From the sequence record MN655998.1: 64,000 bases of DNA; one strand, written 5' to 3'. Positions within the stretch are counted from its first letter, which is position 1. Each line of letters starts with the position of its first letter. Source of the DNA: Escherichia phage E26. The notes beneath the pieces were generated by a model. That model had not been told where the DNA came from, searched no databases, and saw nothing but the letters and a program-made list of their open reading frames with translations. Shown piece after piece: positions 54,019-63,388 of the stretch. The position numbers and the translations under genes were made by a program.

Positions 54019-54186
54019 TTATTTGTTAATTTCCGGTGCGTTGCTTGGATAGTAACCTTCTTTAACTCCGAGGTATTTCGCAACCATCCCTACAATCTTC
54101 TGTGCTACTACAATGTCAAATTTCAGATAATCTTCACCGTAGGTTTCAATGATATATGCTTCACATGCTGCTTTAGTCTCGAACAT
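54019..54186 (-). CDS. small protein (55 aa), paralog copy 1
   Basis: MFETKAACEAYIIETYGEDYLKFDIVVAQKIVGMVAKYLGVKEGYYPSNAPEINK; near-identical second copy at 57287..57454. Confidence 0.6.
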   Translation of the reverse strand: MFETKAACEAYIIETYGEDYLKFDIVVAQKIVGMVAKYLGVKEGYYPSNAPEINK

Positions 54187-54978: not shown

Positions 54979-55004
54979 TAAAAAAGCCGACGCTAAGGTC
55001 GGCT
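54979..55004 (-). terminator. rho-independent terminator after paralog A1
   Basis: minus strand AGCCGAC-CUUAGC-GUCGGCU then UUUUUU. Confidence 0.6.
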
Positions 55005-55011
55005 AATAAAA

Positions 55012-55320
55012 TCATTTAGACAAATAATCATTCTGTGCAATCCGGTCAGCATGTTCCGGCGTTACGTCAATTGCAATCACTTTAACGCGTGCTTTCTTGC
55101 GACCTGGGTTTTCTCGTAGCCAGTGCGTGTGACCGTACAAATTTTTATACTTTGATGCTTCTTCGAAGGTACGGATCGGACCTGGGTAATCAGCGTAAAG
55201 GATCTCTAGATCTTCGGTGATGTAAAAATATACATCGTAATTGCTGTTCTCTAGCTTAAGCAGAGACTTTCGGAACATTGGGAGATTTTCGCGGGTAAAT
55301 TCAAAGATATTATCTTTCAT
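55012..55320 (-). CDS. HxHW-family paralog A1
   Basis: 102 aa from ATG (MKDN, GAGGA RBS); GHTHWL then VKVIAIDV. Confidence 0.55.
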   Translation of the reverse strand: MKDNIFEFTRENLPMFRKSLLKLENSNYDVYFYITEDLEILYADYPGPIRTFEEASKYKNLYGHTHWLRENPGRKKARVKVIAIDVTPEHADRIAQNDYLSK

Positions 55321-55344
55321 AGTATTATCCTCAATAGTTGGATG

Positions 55345-55367
55345 AAAAGGGGGGCTTAACGCCCCCA
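55345..55367 (-). terminator. rho-independent terminator (GGGGGCGUUAAGCCCCC family)
   Basis: same hairpin as at 51562..51582 and, on the other strand, after wac. Confidence 0.6.
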
Positions 55368-55371
55368 TATA

Positions 55372-55659
55372 TTAAAACAGTCCTTCCTGTACACCGTAAT
55401 AGAGTTCGTCGCTGATAATTTCATTAATGCGACGGTGTGCATATTCCTGATTTGCGAAGTTGTCAGCAAGTTCTACTTTAGTTTCTCCGTCATGAGTCCA
55501 TTTAGTGATAACTTTACCATCTGCAAATTTGAAGTTGAACTCTTTAGCTACCGCATCGCGTACCAGACGTGCAAACTTATTGTTGCGGATTGCATTGTCG
55601 GTTTCGTGTGCAGCGTGAGCGAATTTGTTAACTTTCAGAGTGATAGTAATGTATGCCAT
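55372..55659 (-). CDS. small protein, family C paralog 1
   Basis: 95 aa; RLVRDAVAKEFNFK matches REVRKALAKEFNTK in 58672..58983. Confidence 0.5.
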   Translation of the reverse strand: MAYITITLKVNKFAHAAHETDNAIRNNKFARLVRDAVAKEFNFKFADGKVITKWTHDGETKVELADNFANQEYAHRRINEIISDELYYGVQEGLF

Positions 55660-55734
55660 AATTTGATTCTCCTAGTTAGAAAGTGTATCTCGTTTCGATG
55701 GGTGTATTATGCTATACACCCGACCTTATGTCAA
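55660..55734 (-). promoter_or_regulatory. PeSL-like cassette g
   Basis: TTGACA, 17 nt, CATAAT flanked by GGGTGTAT..ATACACCC, leader. Confidence 0.55.
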
Positions 55735-55740
55735 CACTTT

Positions 55741-56019
55741 TTATAAAATAATTTTTTGATATTTTTCTATGATGTTCGTGTAAGTCACATCAACCGCTAG
55801 CACCGTTGCTTCGAATCCACCGTTTAGCCAATGGCTATGGTCATGATCGTGAAAGAAACCAAGACCAGTACGAAGACCTTCTTTATATTCTGCGCGTACA
55901 TTTAGATCATCATCGATAAACAGATAAAACCATGAATTTTTACTAGGATTGATGATACAACCTTTCAGATTAGGGAGAATATCACGACTAAGAATAAACT
56001 TATCACCTACTTTGAACAT
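55741..56019 (-). CDS. HxHW-family paralog A2
   Basis: 92 aa from ATG (MFKVGDKF, GAGGA RBS); HSHWL then VLAVDV. Confidence 0.55.
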   Translation of the reverse strand: MFKVGDKFILSRDILPNLKGCIINPSKNSWFYLFIDDDLNVRAEYKEGLRTGLGFFHDHDHSHWLNGGFEATVLAVDVTYTNIIEKYQKIIL

Positions 56020-56033
56020 AATATTTTCCTCAC

Positions 56034-56342
56034 TTATAAAGTTTGACCGTTGTTTTTCGCGTAATGCTGAATGCGTGCTTGATCTGCTTCCGCTGGTGAT
56101 AGATTCCATGCAACCACTACAACTTCTGACGCATCGTCATCCGTTTTTGATACCCAATGATTATGATTCATACAATTGTTTGCTATCGCGTGAGCAAATG
56201 ATTTCATCACTGGAGATGTATAATCATAGTAACGGATTTTCAGATTTTCATCAACATACAAGTAGATCGTATAAGGTTTATATTCAGTAACCAGTAACAG
56301 ACAGTTACGCAATTCTGGGAAAATCTTTTTAGTTAATTTCAT
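56034..56342 (-). CDS. HxHW-family paralog A3
   Basis: 102 aa from ATG (MKLTKK, GAGGA RBS); HNHWV then VVVVAWNL. Confidence 0.5.
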   Translation of the reverse strand: MKLTKKIFPELRNCLLLVTEYKPYTIYLYVDENLKIRYYDYTSPVMKSFAHAIANNCMNHNHWVSKTDDDASEVVVVAWNLSPAEADQARIQHYAKNNGQTL

Positions 56343-56343
56343 T

Positions 56344-56553
56344 TTATAATCCTCGGTCGCGGCTATAGTACACGGTACGCCATACAATTTCATGTTTCGT
56401 GTCGCTCCAGCACACGATCTCATTTACTCTTAAATCTTTGTTATCAACAAAAGATGAACATTGTGACGTTTCTTTCATCATTTTATCTGCTGTTTTCTCA
56501 TCAAATACAGCACAGATTTCTTTATACACTCGATAATCTTTAAACTTGCTCAT
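56344..56553 (-). CDS. small protein, family B tandem paralog 1
   Basis: 69 aa; MSKFKDYRVYKEICAVFDEKTADKMMKETSQCSSF against MSKFKDYKAYQQILRVYEPEFAEKMMEDASKCPSF in the neighbour. Confidence 0.55.
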   Translation of the reverse strand: MSKFKDYRVYKEICAVFDEKTADKMMKETSQCSSFVDNKDLRVNEIVCWSDTKHEIVWRTVYYSRDRGL

Positions 56554-56555
56554 AA

Positions 56556-56765
56556 TTAACACCAATCAAGAGTTTTTGAAAACACATCTATCCATTGTTG
56601 AGTATATGCGGTTTCTTTCCATGATACAATACCGGTAGAATAATGGTTTTTGTTTCCAGAAAAGGACGGGCATTTTGATGCATCTTCCATCATCTTTTCG
56701 GCGAACTCTGGTTCGTATACTCGCAAGATCTGTTGATATGCTTTGTAGTCTTTAAATTTGCTCAT
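56556..56765 (-). CDS. small protein, family B tandem paralog 2
   Basis: 69 aa; see paralog 1. Confidence 0.55.
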   Translation of the reverse strand: MSKFKDYKAYQQILRVYEPEFAEKMMEDASKCPSFSGNKNHYSTGIVSWKETAYTQQWIDVFSKTLDWC

Positions 56766-57030
56766 AATCGTTAACTACCTTATCAGCTTCTTTTATTGTT
56801 TTTACATCAACTGCGATAACCCGTAAAGGTTCGTCGTGGTTCCACCAATGATCGTGAATATCAGCTTGTGATTTATCACCAAAGGAATCACGAATATCAT
56901 TTTTACATTTATAGCTAATGTGACCGTCATAGTCAACATAAAGGTAATTATCGAAAATCGGCGTTTTTAAGATCATACCGAAAAATCTTTCTTTGTGTGT
57001 CTTATCCAGCGTTGCAGTAATTCGCATCAT
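56752..57030 (-). CDS. HxHW-family paralog A4
   Basis: 92 aa; HDHWW then VIAVDV; GAGGA RBS. Confidence 0.55.
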   Translation of the reverse strand: MMRITATLDKTHKERFFGMILKTPIFDNYLYVDYDGHISYKCKNDIRDSFGDKSQADIHDHWWNHDEPLRVIAVDVKTIKEADKVVNDYEQI

Positions 57031-57042
57031 AATATATTCCTC

Positions 57043-57222
57043 TTAGAAAGGGATGGTCATTTCTTGAGCTTGTACATTCTCGTTAGGATTAAACTTCATC
57101 CAACCGATATTGTCTACCAGCATATGTACATTTTTATCATACCCTACGTGAGTAGTCAACACTAAATGTGCTTTACCTTCAACGATGATTTCCATGTACT
57201 TCTGAACTTCGATAGCTTTCAT
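57043..57222 (-). CDS. hypothetical small protein (59 aa)
   Basis: below ORF-track cutoff; cassette leader RBS. Confidence 0.45.
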   Translation of the reverse strand: MKAIEVQKYMEIIVEGKAHLVLTTHVGYDKNVHMLVDNIGWMKFNPNENVQAQEMTIPF

Positions 57223-57283
57223 TTTGATTCTCCGTTTGTTGTCTTGATGGGAGTATCTTACTACTCCCTTTAATCATTGTCAA
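57223..57283 (-). promoter_or_regulatory. PeSL-like cassette h
   Basis: TTGACA followed by GGGAGTA..TACTCCC inverted repeat around a weak -10, leader. Confidence 0.45.
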
Positions 57284-57286
57284 CTA

Positions 57287-57454
57287 TTATTTGTTAATTT
57301 CCGGTGCGTTGCTTGGATAGTAACCTTCTTTAACACCCAGATATTTTGCAACCATTCCGGTGATCTTCTGTGCTACTACGATATCGAATTTCAGGTAGTC
57401 TTCACCGTGGGTTGCTACAATGTATGCTTCGCATTCTGCTTTAGTCTGGAACAT
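57287..57454 (-). CDS. small protein (55 aa), paralog copy 2
   Basis: MFQTKAECEAYIVATHGEDYLKFDIVVAQKITGMVAKYLGVKEGYYPSNAPEINK; last ~47 nt identical to copy 1. Confidence 0.6.
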   Translation of the reverse strand: MFQTKAECEAYIVATHGEDYLKFDIVVAQKITGMVAKYLGVKEGYYPSNAPEINK

Positions 57455-57518
57455 TTTTGATTCTCCTATATCTCGTTGGTATGTGTGTATTATAGGGGAT
57501 CTCCCGATCCCCTGTCAA
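57455..57518 (-). promoter_or_regulatory. PeSL-like cassette i
   Basis: TTGACA, spacer GGGGATCGGGAGATCCCC, TATAAT, leader. Confidence 0.6.
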
Positions 57519-57526
57519 CAACTTTT

Positions 57527-57835
57527 TTATTCTTCATCTTCATTTTTATCTTTATATGCGTACTTCATAAATTTGTCTGCTACTTTGTCCGCGTTTTCAG
57601 GTTCTACGTCTGACGCTAGGACAACAGCTAGTTCGGTTTTGTCGTTTCCATCATACCAATGATTATGAGTGTCGTTTTCTTTGATATAAAACGAATCATT
57701 TGGAGTTGTGCGACAATATACGTCTAAATTCCCATCGATATAAAAGATCCAATCCGAATACAAAATGATTGTTTTAGCCAGATTTTTATTGTCTCTTACA
57801 AAAGGTTCCGCGACAAATAGCTTAGTTTGTTCCAT
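57527..57835 (-). CDS. HxHW-family paralog A5
   Basis: 102 aa from ATG (MEQTK, GAGGA RBS); HNHWY then VVLASDV. Confidence 0.5.
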   Translation of the reverse strand: MEQTKLFVAEPFVRDNKNLAKTIILYSDWIFYIDGNLDVYCRTTPNDSFYIKENDTHNHWYDGNDKTELAVVLASDVEPENADKVADKFMKYAYKDKNEDEE

Positions 57836-57851
57836 AGTAATTTCCTCAAAA

Positions 57852-58043
57852 TTATACAGCTTCGTAAACTTCCCAATGTCCAACACCAGCACGCTTAACG
57901 AAAAGGTTTTCTTTGATGTTATTCATAAACGTCTGGATGGATTTAATGCGGTTGGAAGGTTTCCAGTCTTCGTTAGCATTGCGGCGATACATTATAACAT
58001 TACCAGATCGCTTATATTCAGCAACCATTTTAAGACCACACAT
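57852..58043 (-). CDS. hypothetical protein (63 aa)
   Basis: ORF with GAGGA RBS. Confidence 0.45.
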   Translation of the reverse strand: MCGLKMVAEYKRSGNVIMYRRNANEDWKPSNRIKSIQTFMNNIKENLFVKRAGVGHWEVYEAV

Positions 58044-58099
58044 AATAATATCCTCAATTTGTGGGAGAGTATTACCCTCCCAATTATTGTTATACTACA

Positions 58100-58402
58100 T
58101 TACGCAAAATGGCGTGTCAATGCTTCTTTTGCTGTTCCGCTAAGATTCTCGATCTCTCCTGGCATAACATCAACCGCCAGAACTTCTACAACATCCTCTG
58201 ATCCTAACCAGTGAGTATGACCTTTGTAGAACTTGATATCCCATTTAACGCTATCGCTAGCCCACCACACATCACCGTCGATAAAGTTGATGTAAAGCAC
58301 ACTACGACACATTGAATTAATTACTTTCAATACTGCGCCTTTCATCTCTTCCACGGTATGGTCTTCCATTTTGAAGACCTCACCTACCTGAACTTTTGCC
58401 AT
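58100..58402 (-). CDS. HxHW-family paralog A6
   Basis: 100 aa; GHTHWL then VLAVDV; GAGAGGTGA RBS. Confidence 0.55.
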   Translation of the reverse strand: MAKVQVGEVFKMEDHTVEEMKGAVLKVINSMCRSVLYINFIDGDVWWASDSVKWDIKFYKGHTHWLGSEDVVEVLAVDVMPGEIENLSGTAKEALTRHFA

Positions 58403-58599: not shown

Positions 58600-58663
58600 A
58601 ATTGATTCTCCTAGTTCGTTTCGGTATGTGTGTATTATAGGGGAGTTTAGCCTCCCCTGTCAA
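58600..58663 (-). promoter_or_regulatory. PeSL-like cassette j
   Basis: TTGACA, spacer GGGGAGGCTAAACTCCCC, TATAAT, leader. Confidence 0.6.
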
Positions 58664-58671
58664 CAACTTTT

Positions 58672-58983
58672 TTAAAGTTTTTCCATGATAACGGTCATAA
58701 TTACATCTTCTGCGCGAGCGGTCAGATTATCAGCGTCAGCATGTGGGCGGTTGGTTGTTACAGAGATAACACCGTTGCGCACTGGTTTGATATTGATATC
58801 AAGATGATCCGCGAAACGTTCGCCAGTTACAGAATGAATTTTGGTGTTAAATTCTTTTGCCAGTGCCTTGCGAACTTCACGAATCAGGATAGCGTTTTTC
58901 AGTTGGTTCTCCGCGCTCATGGTCTTCTGGGTGTTCATGGTTCCGTCGAAGTCAATCATTGGCAGCGTTACGATGTATTTCAT
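58672..58983 (-). CDS. small protein, family C paralog 2
   Basis: 103 aa; shares the VRxAxAKEFN motif with 55372..55659. Confidence 0.5.
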   Translation of the reverse strand: MKYIVTLPMIDFDGTMNTQKTMSAENQLKNAILIREVRKALAKEFNTKIHSVTGERFADHLDINIKPVRNGVISVTTNRPHADADNLTARAEDVIMTVIMEKL

Positions 58984-59422: not shown

Positions 59423-59896
59423 TTACTCCTTATTTTCGCGCTCGTACTTTTCGAAATAAAATTCTACTGGCTGGTCATTAATTGACAGCAAGCCAAAGCG
59501 TTTAGCCGCTCGCAATCCCATATTGCGCTGAATGTACTTCTGGAAGTTCTCGCGTATACACTTACGCCAGTATTCTAAGCCCATACAGCTTTTATAAAGA
59601 TTGCATTGCACACACGCCGGATTCATGTTATCAAGTATATCATGTTCCGGTTTATGCATTCCTACAACCTTATACTTCCACGATCCATCATCATTACGGG
59701 CAATTCGTCCATTTTCATCATAGACTACCTTTGAGCGTCGCAATACTGGTTTGATGTGGTCTGCGTGCCAGCGATCCCCTAGTTCCTCGCCACAATAGGC
59801 ACAACGTCCACCATATTTCATTTTCAGGATCTGGCGTTGCTCTTTCTTTGACAATTTTTTAGGTTTAGGGGCTTTTGCCCCTTCATTATCACACAT
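59423..59896 (-). CDS. small HNH endonuclease
   Basis: 157 aa; HNH core CAYCGEEL..WHADHIKPV..NMNPACVQCN. Confidence 0.65.
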   Translation of the reverse strand: MCDNEGAKAPKPKKLSKKEQRQILKMKYGGRCAYCGEELGDRWHADHIKPVLRRSKVVYDENGRIARNDDGSWKYKVVGMHKPEHDILDNMNPACVQCNLYKSCMGLEYWRKCIRENFQKYIQRNMGLRAAKRFGLLSINDQPVEFYFEKYERENKE

Positions 59897-61385
59897 CGAA
59901 TACCTCTTTTACTGTATTTGCAGTGGTCTTGTCGTAGCGAATACGTTTGATGATTGGGAGAAATAAAGAGAACTCCGGTTCATCTTCTTTACGTGATTTG
60001 CTGCGGATATACCCGTTGCATGTCATCTCAATGACTTTTCCAATCAGGTTATGACGATCAGCCCATAACATTTCTCGGTCGAGTTCATTTCTACGATCGA
60101 ACGGAATTACACGTTCAATACCATCATCACCTTTTTCGGTTGTAGTGTCGGTTAATCCAGATCCGGTGTTAGTCATCATTCGTCCGCACGCACTACGGAC
60201 AGTAAAACCGCCTACCTTATTGGGGTCTTTACTATGCGGATATACATCAACAATTTCCGCGTCGAAGTCAATCACTTCTTTAAATTTAACCTGATCTTTA
60301 CTACGGCGATCTTCAAATACACCATGTAAATTTTTAAGGATAATACCTTCTAAGCCCATGTTTACATAGCGATGATATACTTCGCGAGCTTCGTCTATAT
60401 TGTTAACTACAGTGTTTTCGATTATCTGAACACGAGGATCGTTAAGTTCTTCAACAATCTGTTTTAGTTCTTCGAATCGATCTTTATATTGCTTCGTTGC
60501 TTTCTCGTTTCCGTAATACACATCACGGTCGATAACATCCCAGACAGTGTAAACAATACATTGGGCTTCTTCTTTTGGAATAGTTCCTTTCAGTGATTTG
60601 TTGAGGATACCATTTCCGGTCTGACGATCTGCAACAACGGATTCTTTTACTGCTTCCGCTACTGGAGTTAATGGCATTTCCTCTTCTTCAAATATCCATG
60701 ACAGAGTACCATCATAAACGCTCTCAACGAAGTTCTGCGCTGGTGTTTGTGAAAGGGTAGGCATATATACCAATTCGCCATCTAGAACAATTCCACGGCC
60801 TCGTAGACGCTCTAAAACCGCAAACAAATCATCAAGCCCTTGATAGGTATTACCTGAGCGGGTATAGATTGCTAATGTTTCCCCGTCAATATCAGCCATA
60901 CCACGAGCGCCATCGCTTTTAAGTTGTGCATACGCCGGATATTTGATATTGGCAATAGTCTTATCAGAACATGACGATGCAAGGTGGCACGGTTGCTGAG
61001 GAATCAGTTTCTTCCATACCTTGTTTGCAGTGGTAGCGGAACAGCCGCATTCCAGATCACGATTCAGGACCATCATCGCAACTTTAGCATCATCCTCTGA
61101 CAAGCAAGTCAGAGTATCGGTAACTAGCTGTAATGCTGCATTACCAGTTACTTGACGCGTGGCAAGTTTATTTTTAAAGACCTGTAATGCACCGGATAAA
61201 GACAATACAGACGAATAGCGAGATGGTTTATCGTATTTCTTTACGCCAAACGTAACCTGTTTGCAATATGCCAGATAAAAGCATTCTTTCAGCGTTTCAT
61301 TGCTCGCGGATTCTTTCAGGATCTTTTCTTTCAGCGATGTTTTGTCGGTTGCTGCAAGCTGATTAATGATATTAAGAATTGACAT
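59889..61385 (-). CDS. 30: ATP-dependent DNA ligase gp30
   Basis: 498 aa from ATG (MSIL); adenylation motif KSDG (AYAQLKSDGARG); EGIILKN, FLPI..R..DK; ORF-track start at 61391 is GTG. Confidence 0.95.
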   Translation of the reverse strand: MSILNIINQLAATDKTSLKEKILKESASNETLKECFYLAYCKQVTFGVKKYDKPSRYSSVLSLSGALQVFKNKLATRQVTGNAALQLVTDTLTCLSEDDAKVAMMVLNRDLECGCSATTANKVWKKLIPQQPCHLASSCSDKTIANIKYPAYAQLKSDGARGMADIDGETLAIYTRSGNTYQGLDDLFAVLERLRGRGIVLDGELVYMPTLSQTPAQNFVESVYDGTLSWIFEEEEMPLTPVAEAVKESVVADRQTGNGILNKSLKGTIPKEEAQCIVYTVWDVIDRDVYYGNEKATKQYKDRFEELKQIVEELNDPRVQIIENTVVNNIDEAREVYHRYVNMGLEGIILKNLHGVFEDRRSKDQVKFKEVIDFDAEIVDVYPHSKDPNKVGGFTVRSACGRMMTNTGSGLTDTTTEKGDDGIERVIPFDRRNELDREMLWADRHNLIGKVIEMTCNGYIRSKSRKEDEPEFSLFLPIIKRIRYDKTTANTVKEVFDV

Positions 61386-61851
61386 TTTCACCTCGTTTTG
61401 TTAAACGTTCACGAATATCATTGAGGATACTACAAAATTCCGATTCAGTCAATATAGTCTTTAACGGATCAGTTCCACCTATACTATGACGTAATTTCTT
61501 ATTTCCGGTCGAGAGTAATGCTTTACAAAATTCTGGGTTATTCCGTGCCATCGTAACAAATGCCAGATGTACCAGTCTGTAATAATGCTCACTCATTCGA
61601 TGAATCGGGCGACCCTGAAAATATAACATGTGATTCTCAATCTTTTCAGTTCTTCCGGTTCTTTTTGCTTTGCCACCATGCATCAAAAAGATTTCTCTTT
61701 GTCTCTGAGGGTTCTTAAATCTTAGCCCCTGTAAAAATCCTTCTGTGCTGTTAATATCGCAACCAAATAGACGGAATGGTCTTTTATTGAAATTACTCAA
61801 TTCACCAGATGGATAAGGTCCACCCGCATAGATATCAATTTCAGAAGTCAT
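61372..61851 (-). CDS. NADAR (YbiA-like, DUF1768) domain protein
   Basis: 159 aa; GELSNF...STEGFLQGLRF and HSIGGTD..L.....ILNDIRERL fit the YbiA/NADAR pattern. Confidence 0.5.
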   Translation of the reverse strand: MTSEIDIYAGGPYPSGELSNFNKRPFRLFGCDINSTEGFLQGLRFKNPQRQREIFLMHGGKAKRTGRTEKIENHMLYFQGRPIHRMSEHYYRLVHLAFVTMARNNPEFCKALLSTGNKKLRHSIGGTDPLKTILTESEFCSILNDIRERLTKRGENVNS

Positions 61852-62087: not shown

Positions 62088-62411
62088 TTAACCGTAAACT
62101 ACCACAATATTCTGTTTGTGCGTTACAGTCCATTTCAGGTCGATCTCTTCTTCCTTCTTAACGCCGTTAATAACGTCTGGATGAGGAACTTTATTAAGTT
62201 TCCCATGAGGAAGCAATACAGTCTTGCCCAGCAATTCTTTATCAACGTTATCACCGATATCAATAATCTTACCGACTAAAGGAATCTCTCCCATAGTTCG
62301 TTTTTGCTCGATGATAATACCAAAATCGCTCTTTACTTCGGTCCCTGCGCTTTCCGCTTTAGCTTCAATGATCACATAGTCACCAAGTGCTTTAGGAGTT
62401 TTAACGGTCAT
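62088..62411 (-). CDS. 31: co-chaperonin gp31 (GroES-like)
   Basis: 107 aa; GroES-like size; VPHP motif as T4 gp31; position between ligase and cd. Confidence 0.8.
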   Translation of the reverse strand: MTVKTPKALGDYVIIEAKAESAGTEVKSDFGIIIEQKRTMGEIPLVGKIIDIGDNVDKELLGKTVLLPHGKLNKVPHPDVINGVKKEEEIDLKWTVTHKQNIVVVYG

Positions 62412-62447: not shown

Positions 62448-63065
62448 TTATTTATATTTCGCGACCTTTGGATTTCTCCGCAGACCGGAATGTATTTGCG
62501 CTATACAACAATAAGAAACATTAAACATATCAGCTATAATTTGCTTCTTAACTTTTCCTTTAAGCCGCATTATTTCTTCGACTTGCGCATTTGTCAGTTT
62601 TGCCCGTGAGTGGTTTTCACCGACATTGTTATTGAGTCCAGTTCTAAATGAATGTCTCATATTTTCTAGTAAGGTTACTATTTCTAGATTCCACACATAA
62701 TTGCAGGTTTTTACACCATTGATGTGATTAACCTCAAGTCCGGTAACGTCTCCTAGAAATGCATTTGCTACAAGTCGATGTATCTTTTCGGCTTTAACTG
62801 AGATTTTACCATTGTCTTTTTGTTTTGACAATGTTGAATAATAATATCCATATCGGTCTAAAATTGGTTTTATTATTTTACCAGCACGTTTTTGTTTTAC
62901 GAGCTTAATATTACCGGGAGAAACTTCTCTATAAAATTCGATACTTCGGTCAATAGATCTCAATCTACCATAATTAGAGATTTCATACCACGGATAACCT
63001 ACAGCTTGTCTCCATTCTTCCGGCGCTGGTAATACGATATTATCATCTTTTGTTTCCATTGTCAA
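62448..63065 (-). CDS. HNH homing endonuclease (NUMOD4 + HNH type)
   Basis: 205 aa; WYEISNYGRLRS (NUMOD4-like) and VNHINGVKTCNYVWNLE (HNH) motifs. Confidence 0.75.
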   Translation of the reverse strand: MTMETKDDNIVLPAPEEWRQAVGYPWYEISNYGRLRSIDRSIEFYREVSPGNIKLVKQKRAGKIIKPILDRYGYYYSTLSKQKDNGKISVKAEKIHRLVANAFLGDVTGLEVNHINGVKTCNYVWNLEIVTLLENMRHSFRTGLNNNVGENHSRAKLTNAQVEEIMRLKGKVKKQIIADMFNVSYCCIAQIHSGLRRNPKVAKYK

Positions 63066-63388
63066 CTGCCACCGTAAATTTCGACGATCTGCGCTGGAGT
63101 CAGCCCGTCTACATTAATCAGACTATCAAGCCCAAAACTACGGAAACCTTCAACTGCAATTTCATATACTGGCAAAGATGTTTCTGAGTCTTTACGCGGT
63201 TTTTCAACATTCGGAACTAACCACTTTTCGTATGTTTCGAAAGGCATCAGTGCCGGATCTCGCGTGGCGATCATCTCACGGACAGTACCATCTTTCTTAG
63301 TAAACTGCAAAGAGTGAGTACCGACCGAAAACATTTTCTTTAGTGCTTCACGAAGTGCGATATTATCAACTTGTTCAGTCATTATCAA
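63062..63388 (-). CDS. hypothetical protein (T4 31.1/31.2 position)
   Basis: 108-aa ORF coupled to both neighbours. Confidence 0.5.
   Translation of the reverse strand: MIMTEQVDNIALREALKKMFSVGTHSLQFTKKDGTVREMIATRDPALMPFETYEKWLVPNVEKPRKDSETSLPVYEIAVEGFRSFGLDSLINVDGLTPAQIVEIYGGS

Follow-up and report, generated by a model that had tools for sequence, protein, structure and literature searches.

The 64,000-nucleotide (nt) stretch of Escherichia phage E26 analyzed here (record MN655998.1; hereafter the window, to which positions refer unless a contig is named) carries six small minus-strand genes between positions 55012 and 58402, and sequence comparison identifies them as one homologous family, with similarity far beyond chance. 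The six copies, designated w1 to w6 by increasing window coordinate, represent an old, fixed expansion and not an ongoing diversification, because the paralogs are only about 25% identical, the order of their slots is constant among related phages, and the ratio of nonsynonymous to synonymous substitution (dN/dS) among orthologs lies between 0.12 and 0.24.

Homology and Shared Motifs

The six proteins align over their full length, at 23-29% pairwise identity. The original prediction had described a six-member paralogous family, and its members are indeed related by more than chance motif matches: when profiles were built with one clade left out at a time and run against the 969 six-frame open reading frames (ORFs) of the window, the omitted window copy was recovered at E-values of 4e-9 to 1.5e-18, as compared with about 1 for the best unrelated ORF. 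No seventh copy was found in the 64-kb window, and the complete RB49 genome contains exactly six matches, all at this locus and none outside it.

The minus-strand genes of 92-102 amino acids (aa) that had been predicted are all present as ORFs at the expected coordinates. Each has an ATG start, preceded at 6-9 nt by a GAGG Shine-Dalgarno site, and is closed by a stop codon, and the start positions match those of annotated coding sequences ("hypothetical proteins") in RB49, JSE, and other Krischvirus records. Their coding status is further borne out by the ortholog dN/dS, which is low for every copy. The first of them, w1 (55012-55320, 102 aa), is the ortholog of RB49 ORF197c, belongs to phrog_9345, and carries HTHW and VIAIDV (dN/dS 0.20); the same PHROG takes in w3 (56034-56342, 102 aa), which is the ortholog of RB49 ORF200c and carries HNHW and VVAWNL (dN/dS 0.24). 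Two copies of 92 aa, w2 (55741-56019; ortholog of RB49 ORF199c, phrog_17255) and w4 (56752-57030; ortholog of RB49 ORF203c, phrog_15972), have HSHW with VLAVDV (dN/dS 0.12) and HDHW with VIAVDV (dN/dS 0.16), respectively. The 102-aa protein of w5 (57527-57835; phrog_15965), in the slot of RB49 ORF206c, combines HNHW and VLASDV with an acidic tail and an isoelectric point (pI) of 4.5 (dN/dS 0.20), and w6 (58100-58402, 100 aa), the ortholog of RB49 ORF208c in phrog_16486, carries HTHW and VLAVDV (dN/dS 0.14).

All of these PHROG matches are full-length (E 6.8e-47 to 1.4e-64) and lead to groups annotated as "unknown function." PHROGs 9345, 17255, 15972, 15965, and 16486 divide the family into five groups that are joined only by weak cross-matches (E 1e-7 to 8e-3); since the leave-one-out profiles link them firmly, they are united here as one family.

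The architecture that had been proposed for the family stands in two of its elements and is looser in the third. Both the H-x-H-W motif and a hydrophobic strand of the form (Y/F)-x-(Y/F)-(I/V)-(D/T/N) occur in 6/6 copies, whereas the downstream VxAVDV motif is found as VLAVDV or VIAVDV in three copies and as VIAIDV, VLASDV, and VVAWNL in one copy each, at a distance of 8-13 residues past the Trp of H-x-H-W. Strict invariance across the 33-39 family members compared is limited to His64 and Trp65 (w6 numbering). The conserved alignment columns comprise the hydrophobic strands and H-x-H-W, and column analysis places the latter between the two most variable, indel-rich segments of the protein (residues 46-61 and 66-73 of w6).

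These motifs could be taken to mark small metal-dependent enzymes or metal-binding modules, in which the H-x-H would act jointly with acidic positions in the YIDxD and AVDV strands. Such a reading draws on the near-invariance of H-x-H, on the Asp-rich strands that lie close by in sequence, and on weak Pfam matches of single members to PROCT/MPN-like (E 0.0035) and His-triad (E 0.12) domains. However, the w5 allele of RB49 type has Ser in place of the first His, the family member P0090 lacks this His altogether, and several members have Asn or Gly at the Asp position of AVDV. Because these residues vary, a family-wide H-x-H...D metal site is unlikely, while subsets of members could still have one; as an account of the family, metal-dependent activity appears very improbable.

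Genomic Setting, Copy Number, and Selection

The window is assignable to Krischvirus, the RB49-like T4-type coliphages, by its matches to phage records. The 3.45-kb stretch with the six genes has 58 such matches at 92-96% nucleotide identity, every one of them (58/58) to Krischvirus or to unclassified Escherichia/Shigella phages of RB49-like type. The genes are located in the variable region that extends from gene 30 (DNA ligase, 59889-61391) and an HNH gene to the alt ADP-ribosyltransferase genes, an interval that contains about 30 small genes in Krischvirus and a single small gene, alt.1, in T4. This is an accessory region in which host-interaction genes are expected. Cassettes of an early promoter and a stem-loop (PeSL) are dense across it, and belong to the repeat families D1, D2, and D4.

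In RB49 and phi1, hyperplastic regions with PeSL-flanked ORFans are known from earlier work (Arbiol et al., 2010, PMC2839356; Comeau et al., 2014, PMC4122927), and these concern the same phages and the same locus, with RB49 ORF197c-208c falling between the studied ORFan192 and ORFan210. By location, the six genes belong with the PeSL-associated early accessory genes of these regions, as they lie in a variable region of a T4-type genome that is rich in sigma-70 promoters and stem-loops. They differ from this class in their presence among close relatives, where ORFan-like shuffling is not seen: their order is kept in 11/11 Krischvirus loci, and decay or replacement occurs only in JSE and L019. 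The published work treats the genes as unrelated ORFans, whereas the six are here one family, in a set that is stable across the genus and not shuffled; paralogy among these ORFs is mentioned in neither PMC2839356 nor PMC4122927 (no "paralog" and no relevant "duplicat").

The loci compared are the window, L001, L007-L013, L019, and L020 (L009 being phage JSE, and L019 an IMG/VR contig). The six slots follow one another in identical order in all of them, and the six copies are all intact in nine of the eleven. In JSE (L009 6371-7761 and 8731-9025), w1 carries a frameshift, w5 is broken into two coding sequences, and the slot of w2 is occupied by a second w3-like gene that is 47-53% identical to w3, while in L019 (9687-10025) there is no w1 and only a truncated w2. 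Natural phages can do without single copies. What varies among the phages is allelic replacement or loss at some slots, with swaps at w5, w3, and w2.

Selection was assessed by the Nei-Gojobori method among orthologs, given that paralogs with only about 25% protein identity are saturated at synonymous sites. The dN/dS is 0.12-0.24 over all six copies, and every copy is under purifying selection. The density of diverged paralogs had been read as repeated duplication under diversifying selection, and this is not supported, in view of the low ortholog ratios, the distance between paralogs, and the order kept in all eleven loci. Deeply diverged alleles exist for w5, of which RB49 ORF206c has about 70% protein identity to the window copy and carries SNHW, with a synonymous divergence (dS) of about 0.9-1.3 between alleles; such divergence suggests that alleles were exchanged, not that adaptive change was rapid.

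Distribution and Divergent Members

The range of the family is very narrow and comprises Krischvirus together with a small number of uncultured relatives. When 5.8 billion clusters were searched with a word-indexed profile, 88 were returned, all of which are close orthologs of individual copies, with a w4-like variant (55-58% identity) in addition. The profile search with HMMER, exhaustive over 1.84 billion representatives, gave 24 matches at E up to 1e-3, among which are a few long repetitive proteins with similarity over short stretches only. Krischvirus alone was matched when divergent members were used as tblastn queries against 50,697 phage records, and a scan of IMG/VR yielded two loci, both on Krischvirus-like contigs.

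The divergent members stem from metagenome contigs, most of which are 1-3 kb long and uninformative as to context, and the orthologs in divergent uncultured relatives have 36-60% identity. In a T4-type relative represented by a 20-kb contig (72% ligase identity), the corresponding ligase-alt region contains two w5-like copies. On the 2.1-kb metagenome contig L003, five family domains are found in four adjacent genes; the 203-aa protein P0089 (L003 823-1434) has two tandem H-x-H-W family domains, of which the N-terminal half is w2-like and the C-terminal half w5-like. A further metagenome contig, L004, contains a 266-aa ORF (300-1100) composed of two phrog_8471-like domains and one w3-like domain, and this fusion may reflect a functional link between phrog_8471 and w3, or may be an assembly or frameshift artifact.

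Distribution and selection together bear on whether the genes have a function at all. They could be functionless passengers, spread and kept solely by PeSL-mediated recombination and mini-circle shuffling, as might be expected of a PeSL-rich variable locus with documented modular shuffling (PMC2839356, PMC4122927) in which single copies are broken or lost (JSE, L019). This explanation is nevertheless hard to credit, because the dN/dS of all six copies is well below 1, the slot order is kept across the genus, the orthologs persist in divergent uncultured relatives, and the proteins have a confidently predicted fold.

Predicted Structure and Comparison with Known Families

AlphaFold2 models were built with a 39-sequence family alignment, and those of w6 (predicted local distance difference test, pLDDT, 88.1; predicted template modeling score, pTM, 0.82) and w2 (pLDDT 88.0, pTM 0.82) are similar in quality. 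Both open with a short strand and a short helix, continue through three to four more strands, a variable loop, and a helical turn with H-x-H-W, and close with a last strand (VLAVDV) and C-terminal helices. The family is therefore predicted to share a compact alpha/beta fold of five beta-strands followed by C-terminal helices, and this fold is confidently modeled, yet without a close structural relative.

Searches of Pfam, PADLOC, and PDB sequences with single proteins and with profiles gave nothing significant. The weak matches that were obtained (PROCT, TTL, His-triad, Imm19, and T4_Y03C) each come from a single family member (1 of 33 in Pfam), and no named family fits the proteins, for which Pfam has no model. 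The PROCT match was followed as a lead to a JAMM/MPN metalloprotease-like domain, and this candidate was rejected, as the spacing of the E...H-x-H-x7-S-x2-D motif, which in that group lies in an MPN fold of about 120 aa or more, does not occur in the family.

A relation to the T4 30.3-type small proteins had also been raised, and it was rejected. Comparison of the family with the gp30.3 of the window by hhalign gave a probability of 0.5%, and the family has no match to PF08010. The true gp30.3 of the window is a separate gene (61372-61851, 159 aa; PF08010 at E 6.5e-38) on the opposite side of the ligase gene, and the family profile has no match in T4 positions 115000-135000 (the alt-to-pseT region). 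T4 gp30.3 and the family have in common only the neighborhood of gene 30, and their sequences are unrelated.

The models also invite comparison with Tad2/AcrIIA7 (DUF2829), sponges for cyclic nucleotides and glycocyclic ADP-ribose (gcADPR). The six proteins could be remote structural relatives of these and sequester host immune signaling nucleotides (gcADPR, cyclic di- or trinucleotides), each paralog tuned to another signal. The comparison set consisted of the solved ModTad2, SptTad2, and AcrIIA7 sequences from PDB, retrieved with a DUF2829-like bait. Membership by sequence was rejected: hhalign of the family against the Tad2/AcrIIA7 alignment gave a probability of 0.7%, and the PF11195 profile (DUF2829; signature F-G-x-A-x-E-x-L-K-x-G...W-N-G-K-G...W...D-W) has no match among the six copies at E up to 1 or, at E up to 10, among 33 members. 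Tad2, as published, begins with a helix, followed by an antiparallel sheet of five strands with a second helix placed between the final two; it forms a homotetramer that binds gcADPR or cyclic dinucleotides and inhibits Thoeris or CBASS. The family models parallel this topology only in part and differ in the N-terminal element. On the models, the resemblance to Tad2 is best treated as a lead and not as membership, and remote kinship with these sponges is improbable.

Alternatively, the N-terminal part of the proteins could act as a KOW/SH3-like beta-barrel that binds RNA or DNA, in which case they would be small nucleic-acid-binding regulators that modulate host or phage gene expression early. 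Their neutral-to-acidic charge (pI 4.5-6.9 across the six) argues against such binding, and we consider this role unlikely.

Promoters and Transcription Units

The minus strand between 53976 and 59057 has eight strong matches (10-12/12) to TTGACA-N17/18-TATAAT, and the cassettes are PeSLs of the class described for RB49 and phi1 (PMC2839356). A PeSL-type early promoter of repeat D1 (58634-58663, minus strand; TTGACA-18-TATAAT, 12/12) heads a unit consisting of a 59-aa gene, w6, a 63-aa gene, and w5. The ORF206/205 intergenic space, which follows directly on w5, contains another PeSL early promoter (57489-57518, minus strand; 12/12). On gene order, this site would equal PeSL206/205 of phi1 and RB49, which by experiment is a very strong promoter with very high lacZ expression (PMC2839356). 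A promoter-like D4 site (57255-57283, minus strand; 10/12) heads the unit of a 59-aa gene, w4, two phrog_8471 genes, w3, and w2, and a PeSL early promoter of repeat D2 (55706-55734, minus strand; 11/12) heads the last unit, which consists of a phrog_7474 gene (55372-55659) and w1. Immediately after w1, a terminator-like hairpin with a T-run (54985-55004, minus strand) is present, and a terminator is annotated at the matching place in Ec_Makalu_003 and G2248. In the phi1/RB49 experiments, the PeSL211/210 stem-loop terminated transcription (PMC2839356).

Within their four short units, the six genes take the second to sixth places, and none is the first after a PeSL. The gap to the upstream neighbor is 1-17 nt, and 51 nt in the case of w1. 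Because of the type and position of these promoters, we infer that the six genes are expressed early, from sigma-70 PeSL promoters.

Two further elements are found within these units. Between the phrog_7474 gene and w1, within a longer alternative ORF of w1, lies a GC-rich hairpin (GGGGGC...GCCCCC) with a T-run (55350-55366, minus strand), which could attenuate read-through into w1. Within the 3' end of w6 and upstream of the 63-aa gene (57852-58043), there is a 10/12 promoter-like match (58092-58120, minus strand), which may be an internal promoter or a chance occurrence.

Proposed Function

T4-type phages carry, in their variable regions, dozens of small early genes of unknown function, and several of these have proved to inhibit host machinery or bacterial immunity. 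For the present family, we tentatively favor a general binder/inhibitor model, which we hold to be a reasonable possibility that falls somewhat short of an even expectation: the six would be early accessory proteins, each of which binds a host factor and neutralizes or redirects it. In this model, the proteins would be soluble, cytoplasmic, and expressed early, and each paralog would act early in infection as a stoichiometric binder (an inhibitor or a sequestering protein), with a different host factor or component of host defense as its target. The conserved core would serve as a scaffold, and specificity would be set by the variable loops flanking H-x-H-W and by the variable C-terminal helices. 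The active form would probably be a dimer or a higher oligomer, perhaps with participation of the neighboring phrog_8471 proteins; the tandem protein P0089 and the L004 fusion of phrog_8471 and w3-like domains are hints in this direction. The absence of matches to enzyme families in Pfam, PADLOC, and PDB sequences is counted as support for the binder model.

A more specific proposal is that the six paralogs are an unrecognized counter-defense family on its own fold, related at best very remotely to the Tad2/AcrIIA7 sponge fold, in which each copy of the fixed array, alone or as a hetero-oligomer, neutralizes a different immune signal or effector of E. coli. We regard this as improbable. If true, the array would be a six-way anti-defense cassette of the RB49-like phages.

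Neighboring Gene Families

Wedged between w4 and w3 are the two overlapping phrog_8471 genes (56344-56565 and 56556-56765, minus strand; 73 and 69 aa), which are paralogous to one another, start with "MSKFKDY...", and have overlaps of 10-14 nt. Paralogy is also seen in phrog_7474, with one gene directly upstream of w1 (55372-55659, 95 aa) and another, of 103 aa, at 58672-58983, both on the minus strand. The latter is RB49 ORF210 (the "ORFan210" of Arbiol et al.) and lies one unit upstream of w6, and the pair may be what is left of an ancestral module of two genes. The weak Pfam match of phrog_7474 to Tox-ART-HYD1 (E 0.06) is probably due to chance.

Two copies of a 55-aa gene (phrog_8009; 54019-54186 and 57287-57454, minus strand) have 87% nucleotide identity over 172 nt, with similar PeSLs in front of them (repeats D1 and D3); RB49 has both (ORF191c and ORF205c). 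This pair apparently arose by duplication of a whole PeSL-plus-gene module, much more recently than the H-x-H-W family. Beyond the ligase gene, a 205-aa NUMOD4 + HNH_3 homing-endonuclease-like gene (62448-63065, minus strand) lies between gene 31 (62088-62411) and gene 31.1 (63062-63388). RB49 and JSE have no gene at this position, so the endonuclease-like gene has the appearance of a mobile insertion particular to the lineage of this phage.

Significance

The individual genes were already known as deposited hypothetical proteins, and the region as a PeSL-rich variable one. What is new is the union of five PHROGs into one six-member family, the copy number fixed at six across the genus, the purifying selection on each copy, the very narrow range, and the confident predicted fold. 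A literature search for function or transcriptomics of Krischvirus accessory genes found nothing relevant, and until a phenotype is found the six genes have the status of an uncharacterized accessory family and not of a new mechanism. As such, they constitute a well-delimited candidate for anti-defense or host-takeover screening, for which the invariant His-Trp pair and the natural knock-outs in JSE and L019 offer handles.

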